Source: Escherichia coli
Lineage (GTDB): Bacteria > Pseudomonadota > Gammaproteobacteria > Enterobacterales > Enterobacteriaceae
Direction: 5' to 3' (one strand)
Length of the DNA stretch: 64,000 bases
NCBI RefSeq assembly: GCF_024223415.1
Contig: NZ_CP100500.1
A program made the translations under genes and the position numbers. The notes under the pieces are model-generated. The model did no database searches and was not told the origin of the DNA. It worked only from the letters and a program-made list of their open reading frames with translations. This document shows positions 2,254-40,048 of the stretch, in pieces (within the stretch, counting starts at the first letter, position 1; every line of letters begins with the position of its first letter).

Positions 2254-2715
2254 TTATTTCACTTCTTTAAAACCAGCGGCTTTCATCACCAGTTCCATTT
2301 GCGCCATAGTGATACCTTTTTTGGCATCTTCAGCAGAAACGTTGATTCCTGAAATACCCTGCAGGGCTTTAAAATCCACTTTTTCCATATCGATAGTCAC
2401 GTTTTCCTGCGCGTAGGTATCGGTATAGGTTAATTTTTCTTCAACACCCGCGATGTTTTTGTATTTGGCGCTTAACGGCTCAAGTGTCTTGGCAGCATCT
2501 TCTTTGGTGGTTGCACCAATGGAGGCAAATTGAATTTTGGTTTCAGAAGATTGCTTAAGCACCTTGTCACCTTTGTAGACATAGGTAATGGCAATTTCAG
2601 TGCCGTTCAGATTGGCGCTGAATTTCTTCGATTCTTCTTTGTCACCGCAGCCAGCAAGAGAGAAAACCAGAACAGATGCAACAACGAGGGAAAACAGCTT
2701 ATTGAAAGCCTTCAT
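2254..2715 (-). CDS. yehR: Lipoprotein YehR
   Basis: MKAFNKLFSLVVASVLVFSLAGC carries a lipobox. The size (153 aa) is K-12-like. Confidence 0.85.
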   Translation of the reverse strand: MKAFNKLFSLVVASVLVFSLAGCGDKEESKKFSANLNGTEIAITYVYKGDKVLKQSSETKIQFASIGATTKEDAAKTLEPLSAKYKNIAGVEEKLTYTDTYAQENVTIDMEKVDFKALQGISGINVSAEDAKKGITMAQMELVMKAAGFKEVK

Positions 2716-2839
2716 GTAAAACTCCATTTTATTTAATCAAGGAACTGGTGACTCTCACCAGGGGCTATATAGGATATGCCTAATACCGTGGCGTGAGCAG
2801 TCCGGAACTGGAGTAGAACTCTTAGTAAAAAGCACTATT

Positions 2840-4840
2840 TCATCCTTGTTGCTGAAGCATGGGGAATAATTGTTCGCAAAGCAAAACACCGTTATTCATT
2901 GCTTCTACCCGTGCCTCGCTTTCTGTATTACGAAATTGTCCCAACACATGTGCCAGCCGATAAAAACCCACCGCGGTGAGGTCATTCGCCAGCAACTCTG
3001 CCTGACCAATAGCACTCTGTTCCTGATAGCGCCAGCCGTTATGGAGCAGTTGAATAAGTAACGCCTGGCAGCGTATCAGCAACTGATGAGCAGTAGACGG
3101 CACAGGCAAAACGCTGGCAGAAGGTAGCGGTGCCACAGGCGTAGTTTCTGCGTCCAGCGCCCAGGCACGGGTTTTTGTCATCATCACCCGTGGTTCCAGT
3201 GTCAATTGCCCTTCAACAAAACTGACAAAGCCAGAAACCAGACACACGGGGTCGTCTGTTTGTTGCAAAAGCGCCGCCATGCGTTCAACGGCATAAGGTG
3301 CGCTGGCTGAGGCTGGTAATGATAACGTCAGCACATTATCTTCCCCTTCGCCGCTAATGACCTGCGCATCCAGCGTCTGGCGGCTGCTGTCCCAACCGAG
3401 CGAAATACACTCAGCGACCGGCAGAATAAATAAGTTATCGACCTGATTAAGAGGCCGTATGCAGGCGGGGGGACGCTGGCGTAAATATTCCCGCAAAGCC
3501 ACAATGCCCGGCTGGCGTAACGGCGCGCTCAACATTTGCCAGGCATCAGGCGACAGCGGCACAACGCTGCTTAAGCGGTTGCGGGTAGCTAACAGCAGCT
3601 CGCCATCGGCACTGCGTTTTGCTGCTTGTGAAACAATTTGCCCGCCCGCCAGTGCGCCAGCCTGAAAACTAAACAGCCGACGCGTAGCTGCCGGTGAGTT
3701 TTCCTGTTCACTTCGCGGCCAACTGCGCGAAAGGTGCAAAATACTGCCGGTGTCGGGATCGGTAAACCAGATGCGTAAACCATAATGCTCAATATCCTGC
3801 CAGCAACGCATACCTAAAGACACCAGCCGCAGATGATCAAGCTTTGCTTCTCCGGCAATGCCAGAGCCAACGACCGTGCGCCACGGCACAGGAGGAACTT
3901 CACCAATACTGTCGCGCCGGGCCATCTCTTGTGCGCAATTTAATCGACTGTTTAATGCCGCAAGCTGATGTAAGCATTCTCCGGCATTATAGTGGCTGGC
4001 GCGGGCGTGGAAGGCATCAACGCTGGCGCGCAGTTGCCGTAGCGATTCACTCACCCAGCGCCAGTTGCAGGTCTCTGCCGCCTGCAATGCGCGGTTGAAT
4101 GCTGCCTCGTAATGGATGAGCGGCTGGCTGATGCCGCCAAGCCATAATGTCTGGCTTAATTGCTGAACATATTGACGACACGCGTTGCCTTCTTCGCTGG
4201 CAAACGGATCGTCAGATGATGTGACGTGTTCGCTGCGCATCTGCCAGATTAAATGGTTAAATTCTGCTTGCTGCGCTTTGGCCTCGACGAAGGCCTGTAC
4301 CGCCAGTACGACATGTTCGCAAAGTGTGCCTTCAATACAATCACAACGGGCGAAACGAATACTGCTGCGGGAATAAAAACGCACATCGCTCATCGGTAAG
4401 CGGGCAGAGGGAATTTCACCCGGCGCACAGAACAACTCAATGGTGATGCCTTTAGCGACCAGCGCCTGTGCGCGTTTGCGGGTAGCATCGGGAAGGGTAG
4501 CCAGTTCTTCCAGCCAGATTGCCGGATCCCACTCTTCTTCTTTTTCCGTAGACTGAGTGGTGGCACAAAGTCGTTGATAACTTAACACCAGCATCACGCG
4601 ATGACGGCACATACCGTTGGCCCCGCAACTGCACTGAGCCTCTTTCAGTGCCTGGCCGTTCGCCAGCTGGGTACGGACACCGTCACTGAAGGTGGCGATT
4701 AAAGCGTCGTTCTCATGGCTGATCTCCGGGACGTTGCCATTTTCCAGTTCCTTAAGACTGCGCTTAACAAAACCGGCATTGCTTAACGCCGTCAGGGCCT
4801 GCGGTGTCAGTTCTAATAATTCCGGACGTAGTGAATTCAT
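2840..4840 (-). CDS. yehQ: YehQ, protein with two SWIM zinc fingers
   Basis: Two CxCx(n)CxH motifs are present (CSCGANGMCRH, CDCIEGTLCEH). The start was chosen at MNSLRPELL, whose ATG overlaps the yehP stop (ATGA, 4837-4840). Confidence 0.8.
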   Translation of the reverse strand: MNSLRPELLELTPQALTALSNAGFVKRSLKELENGNVPEISHENDALIATFSDGVRTQLANGQALKEAQCSCGANGMCRHRVMLVLSYQRLCATTQSTEKEEEWDPAIWLEELATLPDATRKRAQALVAKGITIELFCAPGEIPSARLPMSDVRFYSRSSIRFARCDCIEGTLCEHVVLAVQAFVEAKAQQAEFNHLIWQMRSEHVTSSDDPFASEEGNACRQYVQQLSQTLWLGGISQPLIHYEAAFNRALQAAETCNWRWVSESLRQLRASVDAFHARASHYNAGECLHQLAALNSRLNCAQEMARRDSIGEVPPVPWRTVVGSGIAGEAKLDHLRLVSLGMRCWQDIEHYGLRIWFTDPDTGSILHLSRSWPRSEQENSPAATRRLFSFQAGALAGGQIVSQAAKRSADGELLLATRNRLSSVVPLSPDAWQMLSAPLRQPGIVALREYLRQRPPACIRPLNQVDNLFILPVAECISLGWDSSRQTLDAQVISGEGEDNVLTLSLPASASAPYAVERMAALLQQTDDPVCLVSGFVSFVEGQLTLEPRVMMTKTRAWALDAETTPVAPLPSASVLPVPSTAHQLLIRCQALLIQLLHNGWRYQEQSAIGQAELLANDLTAVGFYRLAHVLGQFRNTESEARVEAMNNGVLLCEQLFPMLQQQG

Positions 4841-28416: not shown

Positions 28417-28510
28417 TTTATTAACGCGATTGTAAAACTGCCGTTTTTCCTCGTTTACAACGCGTGCGCTGGACATTACCATCCTCCTCTGCGATTTATC
28501 ATCGCAACCA

Positions 28511-28557
28511 AACGACTCGGGGTGCCCTTCTGCGTGAAGGCTGAGAAATACCCGTAT
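28511..28557 (+). promoter_or_regulatory. 5' half of the thiM TPP (THI-box) riboswitch aptamer, cut off by the island
   Basis: aacgactcggggtgcccttctgcgtgaaggctgagaaatacccgtat equals the 5' part of the crystallised E. coli thiM aptamer. Similarity ends abruptly at 28557. Confidence 0.88.
28544..28557 (+). repeat. attL core (direct repeat copy 1)
   Basis: agaaatacccgtat is identical to 39954-39967. Confidence 0.8.
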
Positions 28558-28642: not shown

Positions 28643-28718
28643 TTGTTTGTTGTTGTTCGTCGTTGTTCGTAGAGCTTCAACAAAATGTGTGGTCAGTTGT
28701 GTGGTCAGTTTTTTGAGG
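28643..28718 (+). repeat. Left-arm copy of a ~75-bp repeat shared by both island arms (candidate Int arm-type sites)
   Basis: 28653-28712 is 60/60 identical to 39831-39890. It contains tandem GTGTGGTCAGTT x2 and TTGTTCGT x2, and a further GTTGTTCGT copy lies near 28594. Confidence 0.8.
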
Positions 28719-28745: not shown

Positions 28746-29969
28746 GTGGGAAAAGCACTAAACAAACTGAGCGATTCGACGTTAAAAAAATTGGCGTCTG
28801 TCCAAGCAGAAAAAGAGCGTTTTTACTCCGACGGGGGCGGGCTGGAGATTAAACACTCAAAGGGCGGCAAATTAACCTGGTATTTCCGGTACCGAACGGG
28901 AGGCCGTGAGGTTGCCGCAGAGCGGTTAAAGCTGGGGGCTTACCCTGAATTGTCGCTGAAAGCTGCAAGGGAAAAACGCGCACAGTGCCGGGCATGGCTG
29001 GCTGAGGGTAAAAACCCCCGTTATGAGTTGTGCGCCACAGTACAGGAAGCGCTAAAACCCGTTACGGTGAAGGAGGCGATTAACTACTGGCTGGATGAAT
29101 ATGCGAAGGATAACCGCAAAGACTACATAAAGCTGGTGCAACGTATGGATAAGCACATCATTTGCCATATAGGGGCAATTCCCCTTGATAAGTGTGATAC
29201 AAGGCAGTGGATCGCATGTTTTGACCGTGTACGAAAAAAAGCACCAGTAGCAGCAGGGCACGTCATGCAAACCTGCAAACAGGCGCTAAAGTTCTGCCGC
29301 AGGAGACGCTACGCGTTCAGTAATGCCCTGGACGATTTGATCGTCAGCGATGTGGGTAAGAGAGCAGAAATTCGCGAGAGGGTGCACAGCAACAGCGAAT
29401 TAAAGGAAATTTTACGCGCTATTGATGGTGATGTGTTCGCGCCTTACTACAGCGCGTTAATGCGCTTGCTGATTGTGTTCGGGTGCAGAACGGCAGAGGT
29501 CAGACTTTCAGAGATCAAAGAATGGGATCTGAAAGAAATGTTGTGGACAGTGCCAAAAGAGCATAGCAAAACGAAGGTAACGATATTCAGGCCAATCCCC
29601 GATGGCATTTTGCCGTTCATTCAGAAGCTGGTGGAGCAGAACCGGCATACAGGGTTATTACTCGGAGAACTGAAAAAAGATACCACGGTAGCGCAATATG
29701 GGCGAAATGCGCATAAGCGGCTTAACCAGGAACACTGGACGCTGCATGACTTTCGCCACACGTTTACAACGATGCTGAACGATTTAGGTGTCGATCCGCA
29801 TATCGTGGAGCACATCACAGCGCATCAGATGCCCGGTCAGCAAAAAACCTATAACCATTCACGCTATTTACAGGCGAAGCGAGACGCTCTGAATCTGTGG
29901 GTTGAGCGCCTCGATGTGCTGGCTGGAAATCATGAAAATATTGTCATATTAAGGGCTGAAAATGAATAA
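28746..29969 (+). CDS. int: Tyrosine recombinase, P4-type integrase
   Basis: GTG start with a GAGGA RBS 7 nt upstream. The N-terminus resembles an arm-binding domain (GGGLEIKHSKGGKLTWYFRYR). The C-terminus has HDFRHTF...HQ...Y catalytic motifs. Confidence 0.9.
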   Translation: MGKALNKLSDSTLKKLASVQAEKERFYSDGGGLEIKHSKGGKLTWYFRYRTGGREVAAERLKLGAYPELSLKAAREKRAQCRAWLAEGKNPRYELCATVQEALKPVTVKEAINYWLDEYAKDNRKDYIKLVQRMDKHIICHIGAIPLDKCDTRQWIACFDRVRKKAPVAAGHVMQTCKQALKFCRRRRYAFSNALDDLIVSDVGKRAEIRERVHSNSELKEILRAIDGDVFAPYYSALMRLLIVFGCRTAEVRLSEIKEWDLKEMLWTVPKEHSKTKVTIFRPIPDGILPFIQKLVEQNRHTGLLLGELKKDTTVAQYGRNAHKRLNQEHWTLHDFRHTFTTMLNDLGVDPHIVEHITAHQMPGQQKTYNHSRYLQAKRDALNLWVERLDVLAGNHENIVILRAENE

Positions 29970-30747
29970 TCTGGGCCGTGTATATCATACGCTGCCAATG
30001 GCAGCTAAAAAAATGGGATGTACTGTAGAGGATATTCTACATTTTGGTGCAACTAACCGACTTGAAATATGTGCGTATATTGATGATATTGAACAGAGAA
30101 AAGATTATTGCACTTTTAATGTGTTTTTTGATAATGAAGATAGCGAGAATAGTTTTTCTAAAACTATAAATAAATATAATTCCATATTTACTGACATGTA
30201 TGAAATATCATTGTTTAATTATAATGATGAGTTTTGTGTTGATGATGAGCGTATGGTTATTGAAGGTTTGTATGCTAATCATATGAAAGGCTTTTTTGCA
30301 ATACCATCTGAATTTCTTGTCGAAGTTGAATTGTCAAGTGCCTGTGAAATCATAAATCTATCGCCTCGTTATTTATATACACCGAAAGGTTATGGTGATT
30401 ATATTCGGTTGGATAGTATAGAAGGTCTTTCTATTCCAGAAAACAGGCTCGTGATATTCGATAGTGAGATATCGGGTTTTAATTATCAAAAGAAACCTAA
30501 ATATGCCGGAGGTGAAAGAGAATCACCTAAAACCAGAGCTAAAAAAGCCGAGATAATACCTGCTCTCATAAAACTGATCCCTGAGATGCAAGATGTGGAT
30601 TTGGAGGATACACCCGTATCCAAAATTGCAGAAATGATAGAGGTTATTGCTGCACAAAGAGGGGTTGAGTTACCTAGCACTCACAGGCAGACATGGCAGA
30701 AATATTTAGGGCGTGATGCTGGTGACGTTCCAAAACGTCAAAAGTGA
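29962..30747 (+). CDS. Hypothetical 261-aa protein, strongly AT-rich cargo-like gene, with possible N- and C-terminal HTH-like segments
   Basis: The ATG overlaps the int stop (ATGAATAA). I recognise no family. Composition is visibly more AT-rich than its neighbours. Confidence 0.6.
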   Translation: MNNLGRVYHTLPMAAKKMGCTVEDILHFGATNRLEICAYIDDIEQRKDYCTFNVFFDNEDSENSFSKTINKYNSIFTDMYEISLFNYNDEFCVDDERMVIEGLYANHMKGFFAIPSEFLVEVELSSACEIINLSPRYLYTPKGYGDYIRLDSIEGLSIPENRLVIFDSEISGFNYQKKPKYAGGERESPKTRAKKAEIIPALIKLIPEMQDVDLEDTPVSKIAEMIEVIAAQRGVELPSTHRQTWQKYLGRDAGDVPKRQK

Positions 30748-30774
30748 TATCACGTACAGATAGTGTGATATCAC
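30744..30774. promoter_or_regulatory. Pair of perfect 10-bp palindromes GTGATATCAC upstream of alpA (candidate operators)
   Basis: Copies at 30744-30753 and 30765-30774, offset by 21 bp (two helical turns). Confidence 0.6.
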
Positions 30775-30803
30775 ACAAACGGCATTTTACCACCGCCTAG
30801 AAT

Positions 30804-30837
30804 CGTCCTCGTTCGGCAACGTTCGAGGACGTTTTTT
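30804..30837 (+). terminator. Hairpin plus T-run directly abutting the alpA start; its 3' arm contains the alpA Shine-Dalgarno
   Basis: cgtcctcg (30804-30811) pairs with cgaggacg (30824-30831) and is followed by TTTTTT, then the ATG at 30838. Confidence 0.6.
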
Positions 30838-31062
30838 ATGAATCAAAATACACAATTTCAATCACTATCAGATCGCGTAATCCGTGAGGATGAATGCCGT
30901 AAGTTAACAGGAGTGTGCCGCACTACACGCTACGAACTGGAGAAAAAAGGGAGCTTTCCGTCTCGCCGTAATCTTGGTGGGCGTTCTGTAGGTTGGCTGC
31001 TGTCCGAGGTTATGGAATGGGTTAAAAGCCGGGATCGCATTAATTCAGGCAAGGCAGCGTAA
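30838..31062 (+). CDS. alpA: AlpA-family (prophage CP4-57 regulatory / excisionase-like) DNA-binding protein
   Basis: 74 aa with the motif RVIREDECRKLTGVCRTTRYELEKKGSFPSRRNLGGRSVGWLLSEVMEWV, typical of the AlpA/Vis family. Confidence 0.85.
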   Translation: MNQNTQFQSLSDRVIREDECRKLTGVCRTTRYELEKKGSFPSRRNLGGRSVGWLLSEVMEWVKSRDRINSGKAA

Positions 31063-35809: not shown

Positions 35810-35815
35810 GCACAC

Positions 35816-35839
35816 AGCCGGAGCAATCCGGCTTTTTTG
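35816..35839 (+). terminator. Rho-independent terminator ending the replication/regulation operon
   Basis: agccgga-gcaa-tccggct followed by TTTTTG. Confidence 0.75.
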
Positions 35840-38085: not shown

Positions 38086-38090
38086 GACAA

Positions 38091-38114
38091 GGCCGGAGAA
38101 ATCCGGCTTTTTTT
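38091..38114 (+). terminator. Rho-independent terminator after the capsid module
   Basis: ggccgga-gaaa-tccggc followed by TTTTTTT. Confidence 0.75.
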
Positions 38115-39261: not shown

Positions 39262-39506
39262 AACGCAAAATTGCGCTGGCTACATCCCTCACATCTGAGG
39301 ACTGATAACAAGCTGCCTGAAAGACAGTCACAAACTACGAAATTTTCGCAGTTTAATTAATGGTCAGCTTAATCGCTAACCCGCTGATATTTTCGGAAAC
39401 ATCAATTTGAGGAAGTCGGCGCGGTAACTCGCTGAACTTAAAGCAAAGCGCAAAATTGCGCTGATTACTGGTTGGAATTGTTCCAGAGTGCAAATTTGCA
39501 CTCTGG
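39262..39506. repeat. Set of related inverted repeats (GCGCAA-AA-TTGCGC type) plus a 24-bp perfect palindrome
   Basis: aacgcaaaattgcgct at 39262-39277, agcgcaaaattgcgct at 39447-39462, and ccagagtgcaaatttgcactctgg at 39483-39506. Confidence 0.7.
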
Positions 39507-39667
39507 CCTAACCCGTTGATTATTTCGAAAACCTGCAATGCAGGAAATCGGGGAAGTAAGCCTAAGCTATTGATTGTTTCGAAAACCACCATTGGGGGAT
39601 GTCGGGAAAGTAAGACTAACCCATTGATTCTTCCACAATCCTCAATGTGAGGAGGCCGGACATCGTG
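39376..39667. repeat. Four degenerate ~54-bp repeat units (three in exact tandem phase) in the right arm of the island
   Basis: Units start at 39376, 39508, 39562 and 39616. Consensus is CTAACCCnTTGATTnTTTCGAAAAC plus a short hairpin plus GTCGG..AGTAAG. Confidence 0.75.
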
Positions 39668-39820: not shown

Positions 39821-39894
39821 TTGTTTGTTATTGTTCGTCGTTGTTCGTAGAGCTTCAACAAAATGTGTGGTCAGTTGTGTGGTCAGTTTTGAGG
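39821..39894 (+). repeat. Right-arm copy of the ~75-bp repeat shared by both island arms
   Basis: 39831-39890 is identical to 28653-28712. Confidence 0.8.
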
Positions 39895-39953: not shown

Positions 39954-39967
39954 AGAAATACCCGTAT
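39954..39967 (+). repeat. attR core (direct repeat copy 2)
   Basis: agaaatacccgtat is identical to 28544-28557. Confidence 0.8.
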
Positions 39968-40048
39968 CACCTGATCTGGATAATGCCAGCGTAGGGAAGT
40001 CACGGACCACCAGGTCATTGCTTCTTCACGTTATGGCAGGAGCAAACT
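39954..40048 (+). promoter_or_regulatory. 3' half of the thiM TPP riboswitch aptamer plus its expression platform
   Basis: agaaatacccgtatcacctgatctggataatgccagcgtagggaagtcacgg...ggcaggagcaaact continues the thiM aptamer exactly where 28557 stops and runs to the thiM ATG. Confidence 0.88.

Follow-up and report, generated by a model that had tools for sequence, protein, structure and literature searches.

What does a gene do when it stands, island after island, between the integrase gene and the gene for the activator of a phage-inducible chromosomal island? The question is raised by a 64,000-nucleotide stretch of an Escherichia coli chromosome (contig NZ_CP100500.1; hereafter, the window), in which an island carries such a gene, here called X, between int and alpA. 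In Gram-negative satellites, AlpA activates the island cycle, and alpA is switched on by a helper phage through an inducer that is unknown (PMC6092414). Whether these islands have a global repressor was described as "unclear", and helper sensing has been an open problem since 2018, as no repressor or sensor was identified (PMC6092414). The papers that we read on EcCIMP1 and on Gram-negative, capsid-forming, and helper-embedded islands make no mention of a gene between int and alpA. With somewhat more belief than doubt, we propose that X regulates the alpA promoter by binding DNA and that its middle domain confers specificity or acts as a sensor.

The evidence that carries this proposal is a pair of short palindromes next to a conserved C-terminal module of X, which we call type A. 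In the window, the two palindromes are perfect, 10 bp long, and identical, and no further GTGANNTCAC exists in its 64 kb. We fetched 63 loci and surveyed them with the consensus GTGAwwTCAC. As an exact-match pattern, the twin site is found in 36 of these loci, never more than once in a locus and never away from the X stop codon, and when one or two mismatches are allowed, it is present in all 40 loci with a type-A C-terminus (at least 20 distinct alleles), the second palindrome lying 20 to 22 bp downstream of the first. It occurs in none of the 10 loci that lack this C-terminus, namely those with another C-terminus called type B (L007, L022, and L026), those with still other C-termini (L008 and L021), those in which X is replaced by a DUF6387 protein (L011 and L030), and those in which the slot is empty (L029, which is EcCICFT073, L031, and L032). 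AlpA in L011, L030, and L031 is nevertheless 91 to 93% identical to AlpA of the window, and Int in L011 and L030 is 96.6% identical. Because the palindromes are absent from loci with nearly identical AlpA or Int but without the type-A C-terminus, they track X and not AlpA or Int. Furthermore, they are kept in Serratia, Yersinia, Erwinia, and Kosakonia despite completely diverged neighbouring non-coding sequence.

Loci with identical palindromes also suggest which part of X would read them. Among such loci, the recognition helix of the N-terminal module differs (TVEDILH, PISNIFH, or QESDVLH), while helix 3 of the C-terminal module, its last helix, is almost invariant, and this combination points to the C-terminal bundle as the probable palindrome reader. 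We also asked whether the two central palindrome bases change together with the C-terminal motif (TH.. and TD.. classes); the pattern was inconsistent, and the idea was rejected. The outer half-sites GTGA and TCAC are invariant.

The palindromes keep a fixed distance to a feature that may be the alpA promoter. A hexamer of the form nAnAAT lies 22 to 23 nt past palindrome 2 in about 20 distinct arrangements or lineages in which the intervening sequence has diverged. If this hexamer is a -10 element, the palindromes would be centred at about -40 and -61 of a promoter without a -35 element. Such a geometry resembles that of activator-dependent promoters, and co-expression with Int and the analogy with Stl, the repressor of Gram-positive islands, suggest a repressor. 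As an observation in its own right, a -10-like hexamer is also found between the palindromes in many loci, where a matching -35 position is not conserved. We keep this alternative promoter as a possibility, so that X may be either a repressor of alpA or a helper-dependent activator.

Directly abutting the hexamer is a hairpin whose 3′ arm contains the Shine-Dalgarno sequence of alpA, GAGGA (30825-30829). Single-sequence folds, by which all the leader hairpins were assessed, gave -17.7 kcal/mol for the centroid and -19.2 for the minimum free energy structure in the window (z -3.1), and an equivalent hairpin with a paired Shine-Dalgarno sequence was found in 12 of 12 diverse alpA leaders, with compensatory differences in the stem. 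Since a T-run closes only some of these hairpins, what they have in common is the masking of translation and not termination. Hairpins of this type were also seen at L004-L007, L011, L012, L014, L016, L022, L026, and L030, where the upstream gene is X or encodes a DUF6387 protein. By hiding the ribosome-binding site, the hairpin should keep an int-X read-through transcript from yielding AlpA. A transcript starting about 7 nt past the hexamer would instead begin inside the 5′ arm, lose that arm, and be translatable.

The model that we favour can thus be put in a few sentences. X would belong to the switch between integration and induction and, since int and X overlap, would be made together with Int. 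The palindromes, which would lie at about -61 and -40 relative to the start of alpA transcription, would each bind an X dimer, and X would thereby determine how much AlpA activator is available to start excision and replication. Of the three modules, the C-terminal bundle is the likeliest palindrome reader and the hypervariable middle domain the likeliest source of an island-specific response, for example, to a helper-phage protein; the N-terminal domain could be a second nucleic-acid-binding module. A bolder form of the proposal would have X sense the helper phage and act as master regulator in a large lineage of Gram-negative islands, including capsid-forming ones such as EcCIEDL933, with the C-terminal bundle as a new DNA-binding fold acting on twin operators and the middle domain binding a helper protein and deciding which phages induce the island; we regard this form as possible but doubtful. 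The sequence-only reading, that is, a first interpretation of this DNA made without database searches, had offered a helper-sensing regulator analogous to Stl as its second option. The regulator part of that idea is the one favoured here, while helper sensing is something that we only infer.

That X is a real gene is clear. Its ATG (29962-29964) and the int stop codon TAA (29967-29969) overlap within ATGAATAA, and an overlap of 4 or 8 nt between int and the downstream gene is kept in related loci. All three parts of X are under purifying selection, with a ratio of nonsynonymous to synonymous substitution rates (dN/dS) of 0.06 to 0.3 wherever dS is unsaturated. The GC content drops to 0.305 at 30000-30399 (calculated over 400 bp), compared with about 0.48 to 0.52 in int and most of the island; for the whole of X it is 0.356, and 0.26 at third codon positions (GC3), versus 0.492 and 0.549 for int. 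The sequence-only reading was therefore right about an AT-rich open reading frame of 261 amino acids between int and alpA that overlaps int, including its coordinates and the drop in GC content. This richness in AT is common to the homologues of X in every host genus (GC, 32 to 39%; GC3, 21 to 37%), and because all homologues in all hosts have a low GC content, it is a family trait and not a mark of recent import into this island.

It also holds that X belongs to no recognised family. The whole protein had no match in Pfam, even at E values up to 10, in PADLOC, or in PHROGs, and only a noise match in NCBIfam, and its modules, taken separately, had no match in the family libraries. None of the defence models of PADLOC-DB 2.0 was matched at E values up to 10, tblastn against 50,697 phage records gave no match, and PDB sequence searches with the family profile and with an N-terminal profile returned only noise. 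In contrast, the description of X as an orphan has to be abandoned. A word-indexed search placed its relatives in 19 clusters, all unnamed and all from Enterobacterales, and an exhaustive profile search of 1.84 billion representatives found 207 relatives at E<1e-3, of which 36 were at E<1e-30.

Among the Enterobacterales loci checked, the order int-X-alpA was found in every locus with readable context. This includes three further E. coli islands that share the attachment site, the capsid-forming island of the EcCIEDL933 type in O157:H7 (whose X allele recurs with 99% identity or more in 47 complete genomes), Serratia, Yersinia, one unclassified Enterobacterales genome, and metagenome contigs, some with relatives that share the N-terminal domain only. 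Homologues of X are also present in Erwinia and Kosakonia genomes. Apparent homologues comprising only the C-terminal part were rejected, as they are fragments of frameshifted genes. In two E. coli islands (L024 and L025; 4561-5279), for instance, a frameshifted X is split into open reading frames of 139 and 92 amino acids, with alpA and the primase gene intact. The frameshifted cluster was seen on 9 contigs, and truncated forms of X such as P0018 also occur.

An AlphaFold2 model of X, with a mean predicted local distance difference test (pLDDT) score of 80.7, consists of an N-terminal winged domain, an alpha/beta middle domain, a disordered linker, and a C-terminal three-helix bundle. The N-terminal fold is predicted as strand, helix, turn, helix, and beta wing, the arrangement of the winged helix-turn-helix (wHTH) of excisionases and MerR, and structural matches of the model are confined to the N-terminal 50 or so residues (Xis, MerR-type regulators, BldC, RdfS, an AlpA-family excisionase, and Cox). 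At the level of sequence, HTH_17 was weakly matched by 4 of 148 relatives (best E, 3e-4) and MerR_1 by 1 of 148, and an hhalign comparison of the N-terminal module with the islands' own AlpA gave a probability of 0.1%, that is, no relationship. Foldseek against viral predicted structures returned nothing below an E value of 0.3. The middle module matched no known fold, the C-terminal bundle matched no known DNA-binding fold, and X has no recognisable enzymatic, toxin, or membrane domain. Thus, of the helix-turn-helix-like stretches that had been noticed at both ends of the protein, the N-terminal one is borne out by the structural comparison as a predicted wHTH, while the C-terminal one lies in a bundle without such a match.

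The three modules assort independently by recombination. The X of the window is 98% identical to that of L003 (TUM9812) in the N-terminal module, 78% in the middle, and 67% in the C-terminal module, while the corresponding values for L001 (OkiPb01685) are 71, 43, and 95%, and those between L002 (PKF4) and L010 (O157) are 79, 30, and 94%. Overall, the identity of the middle domain ranges from 14 to 78% between flanking Int and AlpA proteins that are more than 92% identical. Even in islands at the same site, with Int 96.6 to 99.3% and AlpA 92 to 97% identical, the middle domain falls to 16%. The type-B relatives (L007, L022, and L026) share the N-terminal and middle architecture and end differently, in ...PPVSGxTLxTWLxDVELDYVEI. 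In these loci, the gap to alpA is only about 50 bp and has no GTGAwwTCAC; any cis-sites must lie inside the coding sequence.

The slot itself can be occupied by something else or be empty, and so the suggestion that it varies between related islands proved correct, either through the divergence of the middle domain just described or through replacement. Some sister islands at the rcnR/thiM site encode, in place of X, a DUF6387 protein (PF19924) of 284 to 331 amino acids that is unrelated to it, as in L011 (E. coli VG35A2; 3253-4248) and L030 (E. coli OSUCMP42NDM; 2573-3427). The occupant in L011 matches the DUF6387 hidden Markov model at an E value of 1.4e-25, while X and its relatives do not match it. 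Like X, the DUF6387 genes sit in the slot and overlap the int stop codon; unlike X, with which the proteins share 18% identity and no motifs, they lack the twin palindromes downstream. The DUF6387 protein may be an analogue of X. In EcCICFT073 and in islands at the cspD site, the slot is a non-coding gap of 365 to 420 bp without any remnant of X. The slot is thus highly prone to variation, yet within this integrase lineage it is usually filled by members of a single family, that of X.

This variability is an argument for the first choice of the sequence-only reading, in which X would be accessory cargo, such as an anti-phage or interference protein in a variable slot, and the palindromes would serve autoregulation or block read-through. 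Hypervariability between nearly identical flanks, the unrelated DUF6387 proteins of sister islands, the empty slot of EcCICFT073, the AT-rich composition, and middle and C-terminal folds that match nothing known would all fit cargo. We nevertheless consider it unlikely, given the empty defence search, the lack of a toxin, membrane, or enzymatic domain, an N-terminus of DNA-binding type, and the absence of homologues from the phage records. The strict synteny, maintained across several genera and attachment sites under purifying selection, also speaks against cargo, as do conserved cis-sites held at a fixed distance from the -10-like element of alpA, which is not what autoregulation of X would lead one to expect.

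Two further explanations keep X or its palindromes within the island cycle and seem to us very unlikely. X could be a recombination directionality factor, or an accessory protein of Int acting at the att sites, which would explain its coupling to int, its constant position overlapping or directly following that gene, and its Xis-like N-terminus, with excisionases heading the structural matches (Pukovnik Xis, RdfS, TorI, Cox, and Tn916 Xis). However, Int proteins do without it, since one 96.6% identical at the same att site is accompanied by DUF6387 and one 67% identical by an empty slot, and EcCICFT073 excises with Int and AlpA alone (PMC6092414). Moreover, X has 261 amino acids in three domains, compared with 50 to 100 amino acids for known directionality factors, and the att arms contain no GTGANNTCAC and carry a different repeat, two copies of TGTGTGGTCAGT. 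Decidedly improbable as well is that a helper-phage or host protein binds the palindromes while X is otherwise employed, the association with the C-terminus reflecting co-inheritance of adjacent DNA. Palindrome 1 overlaps the X stop codon and is physically inseparable from the C-terminal coding block, that domain matches no DNA-binding fold, and helper phages are known to induce alpA, points that would all suit another binder. Against it, the palindromes persist in four other genera amid fully diverged non-coding DNA and are missing whenever the type-A C-terminus is missing, even next to the same AlpA allele, although a site for a host factor would be expected in islands without type A too.

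Several observations weigh against X as the regulator of alpA and limit how far that proposal can be taken. As the palindromes adjoin the C-terminal coding sequence, their association with it could partly be simple linkage. A generic promoter scan did not call the alpA promoter, which is assigned solely on a weak consensus. DUF6387 takes the place of X in sister islands whose Int and AlpA are nearly the same. The slot is empty in EcCICFT073 and in the cspD-site islands, and since a helper can nevertheless induce EcCICFT073 through AlpA, X is no universal requirement. Finally, frameshifted X genes with an intact alpA and primase persist in natural isolates, which argues that X is not the sole indispensable repressor, although a free C-terminal fragment of the frameshifted protein might still act or bind.

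Even so, the X family provides a concrete and testable regulator candidate for a major island lineage, including the EcCIEDL933 type, and our analysis defines the exact DNA sites to mutate and the domain to swap. Islands of the EcCIEDL933 type are experimentally tractable and have known helpers, HK106 and HK446. Should the proposal be true, it would bring two new protein folds and a compact switch, in which an operator overlaps the stop codon of its regulator and a hairpin insulates alpA from upstream transcription. Should X be cargo instead, the locus would still mark a recombination hotspot between two conserved genes. The positions of all these elements are collected in the following table.

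Table. Coordinates of gene X, its modules, the neighbouring genes, and the candidate regulatory and attachment sites in the 64,000-nucleotide window.
Feature	Position	Strand	Remarks
Gene X	29962..30747	+	261 amino acids, AT-rich, three modules; from the open reading frame list, homologues, AlphaFold2 model, and purifying selection
X N-terminal module, residues 1-45	29962..30096	+	Predicted winged helix-turn-helix, excisionase/MerR type
X middle module, residues 46-175	30097..30486	+	GC 0.307, most AT-rich and most variable; mixed alpha/beta
X C-terminal module, type A, residues 186-251	30517..30714	+	Conserved three-helix bundle, ends ...THRQTWQKYLGR
Palindrome 1, GTGATATCAC	30744..30753		Holds the X stop codon TGA; candidate operator
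Palindrome 2, GTGATATCAC	30765..30774		21 bp from palindrome 1; candidate operator
-10-like hexamer TAGAAT	30798..30803	+	Inferred alpA promoter; spacing conserved; no recognisable -35
Hairpin CGTCCTCG-tt-CG-gcaa-CG-tt-CGAGGACG, then T6	30804..30837	+	Stem-loop 30804-30831; abuts alpA ATG
Tyrosine integrase gene int	28746..29969	+	407 amino acids; Pfam Arm-DNA-bind_3 and Phage_integrase; stop overlaps X start
alpA	30838..31062	+	74 amino acids; Pfam Phage_AlpA, E 4e-16
attL core AGAAATACCCGTAT	28544..28557	+	Left island boundary, inside the thiM TPP riboswitch; direct repeat
attR core AGAAATACCCGTAT	39954..39967	+	Right island boundary; direct repeat

The island that contains these features is 11.4 kb long, lies in an E. 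coli-like chromosome, and is bounded by a 14-bp direct repeat, AGAAATACCCGTAT. When its flanks are joined, they give the empty rcnR-thiM site at 100% identity, a site that is contiguous in 4728 of 5426 complete E. coli genomes (coverage of at least 80%); about 700 of 5424 E. coli genomes (5424 minus 4728) do not have a contiguous empty site. In addition to int, X, and alpA, the island encodes a D5/DUF5906 primase, a single-stranded DNA-binding protein, a lambda-E-type major capsid protein, a head decoration protein, and small genes, a content like that of the classical satellite EcCICFT073. Its insertion splits the aptamer of the thiM thiamine pyrophosphate (TPP) riboswitch, with the 5′ half before int and the 3′ half before thiM (flanks 28500-28557 and 39954-40014), and the aptamer on the attR side scores only 36 bits in Rfam, where the gathering score is 54. 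Transcription from the thiM promoter may thus continue into int-X, and the usual control of thiMD may be gone.

Several repeats were also observed within the island. A 70-nt direct repeat, 99% identical, lies inside both ends (28643-28712 and 39821-39890), and each copy contains a tandem 12-mer, the doubled TGTGTGGTCAGT of the att arms. In the circular form, these repeats would flank the att core in the same orientation, and Int or an accessory protein probably uses them as arm-type sites; they resemble the "doubled motif" described in PMC10111431. Near the right end, three copies of a 54-nt unit (70 to 100% identical), each with an internal inverted repeat, span 39374-39613 and overlap a dubious minus-strand open reading frame; these may represent iterons, a packaging site, or a repeat element of some other kind. 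Two near-identical 27-nt elements with a hairpin and a T-run (GCCGGAGcAATCCGGCTTTTTT; 35812-35838 and 38087-38113) follow two island gene blocks and are probably intrinsic terminators.

How, then, does X compare with regulators that are already known? The closest parallel is with Stl and Rpr, the master repressors of the Staphylococcus aureus pathogenicity islands (SaPIs) and other Gram-positive islands. Like them, X would be an island-encoded DNA-binding regulator located between int and the genes that start the cycle, and like them, it diverges strongly between islands; their coupling to a particular helper is a likeness that is only proposed for X (PMC6092414). If X had an Stl-like role, its operators would be the candidate palindromes at about -40 and -61 of the putative alpA promoter, which are strictly associated with X. 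The differences are nonetheless considerable. X has no sequence or detectable fold relationship with Stl or Rpr, nor a family match in any library. While Stl is divergent from the operon that it regulates, X is co-directional with int and alpA and translationally coupled to int; its target would be the promoter of an activator, and it is absent from some Gram-negative islands.

The predicted N-terminal domain invites a comparison with the excisionase and MerR wHTH proteins (HTH_17 and Phage_AlpA; Pukovnik Xis, RdfS, P2 Cox, and TorI), from which X differs in that it does not match their hidden Markov models, is three to four times longer, and has two extra domains. The candidate sites, on the other hand, recall the lambda operators OR1 and OR2, at which CI binds twin operators two helical turns apart that abut the -35 element. 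X is unrelated to CI, its binding is hypothetical, and neither a third operator nor a divergent promoter is evident, but its two palindromes likewise lie about two turns apart, with the proximal one ending beside the would-be -35, a geometry that permits cooperative binding and either activation or repression.

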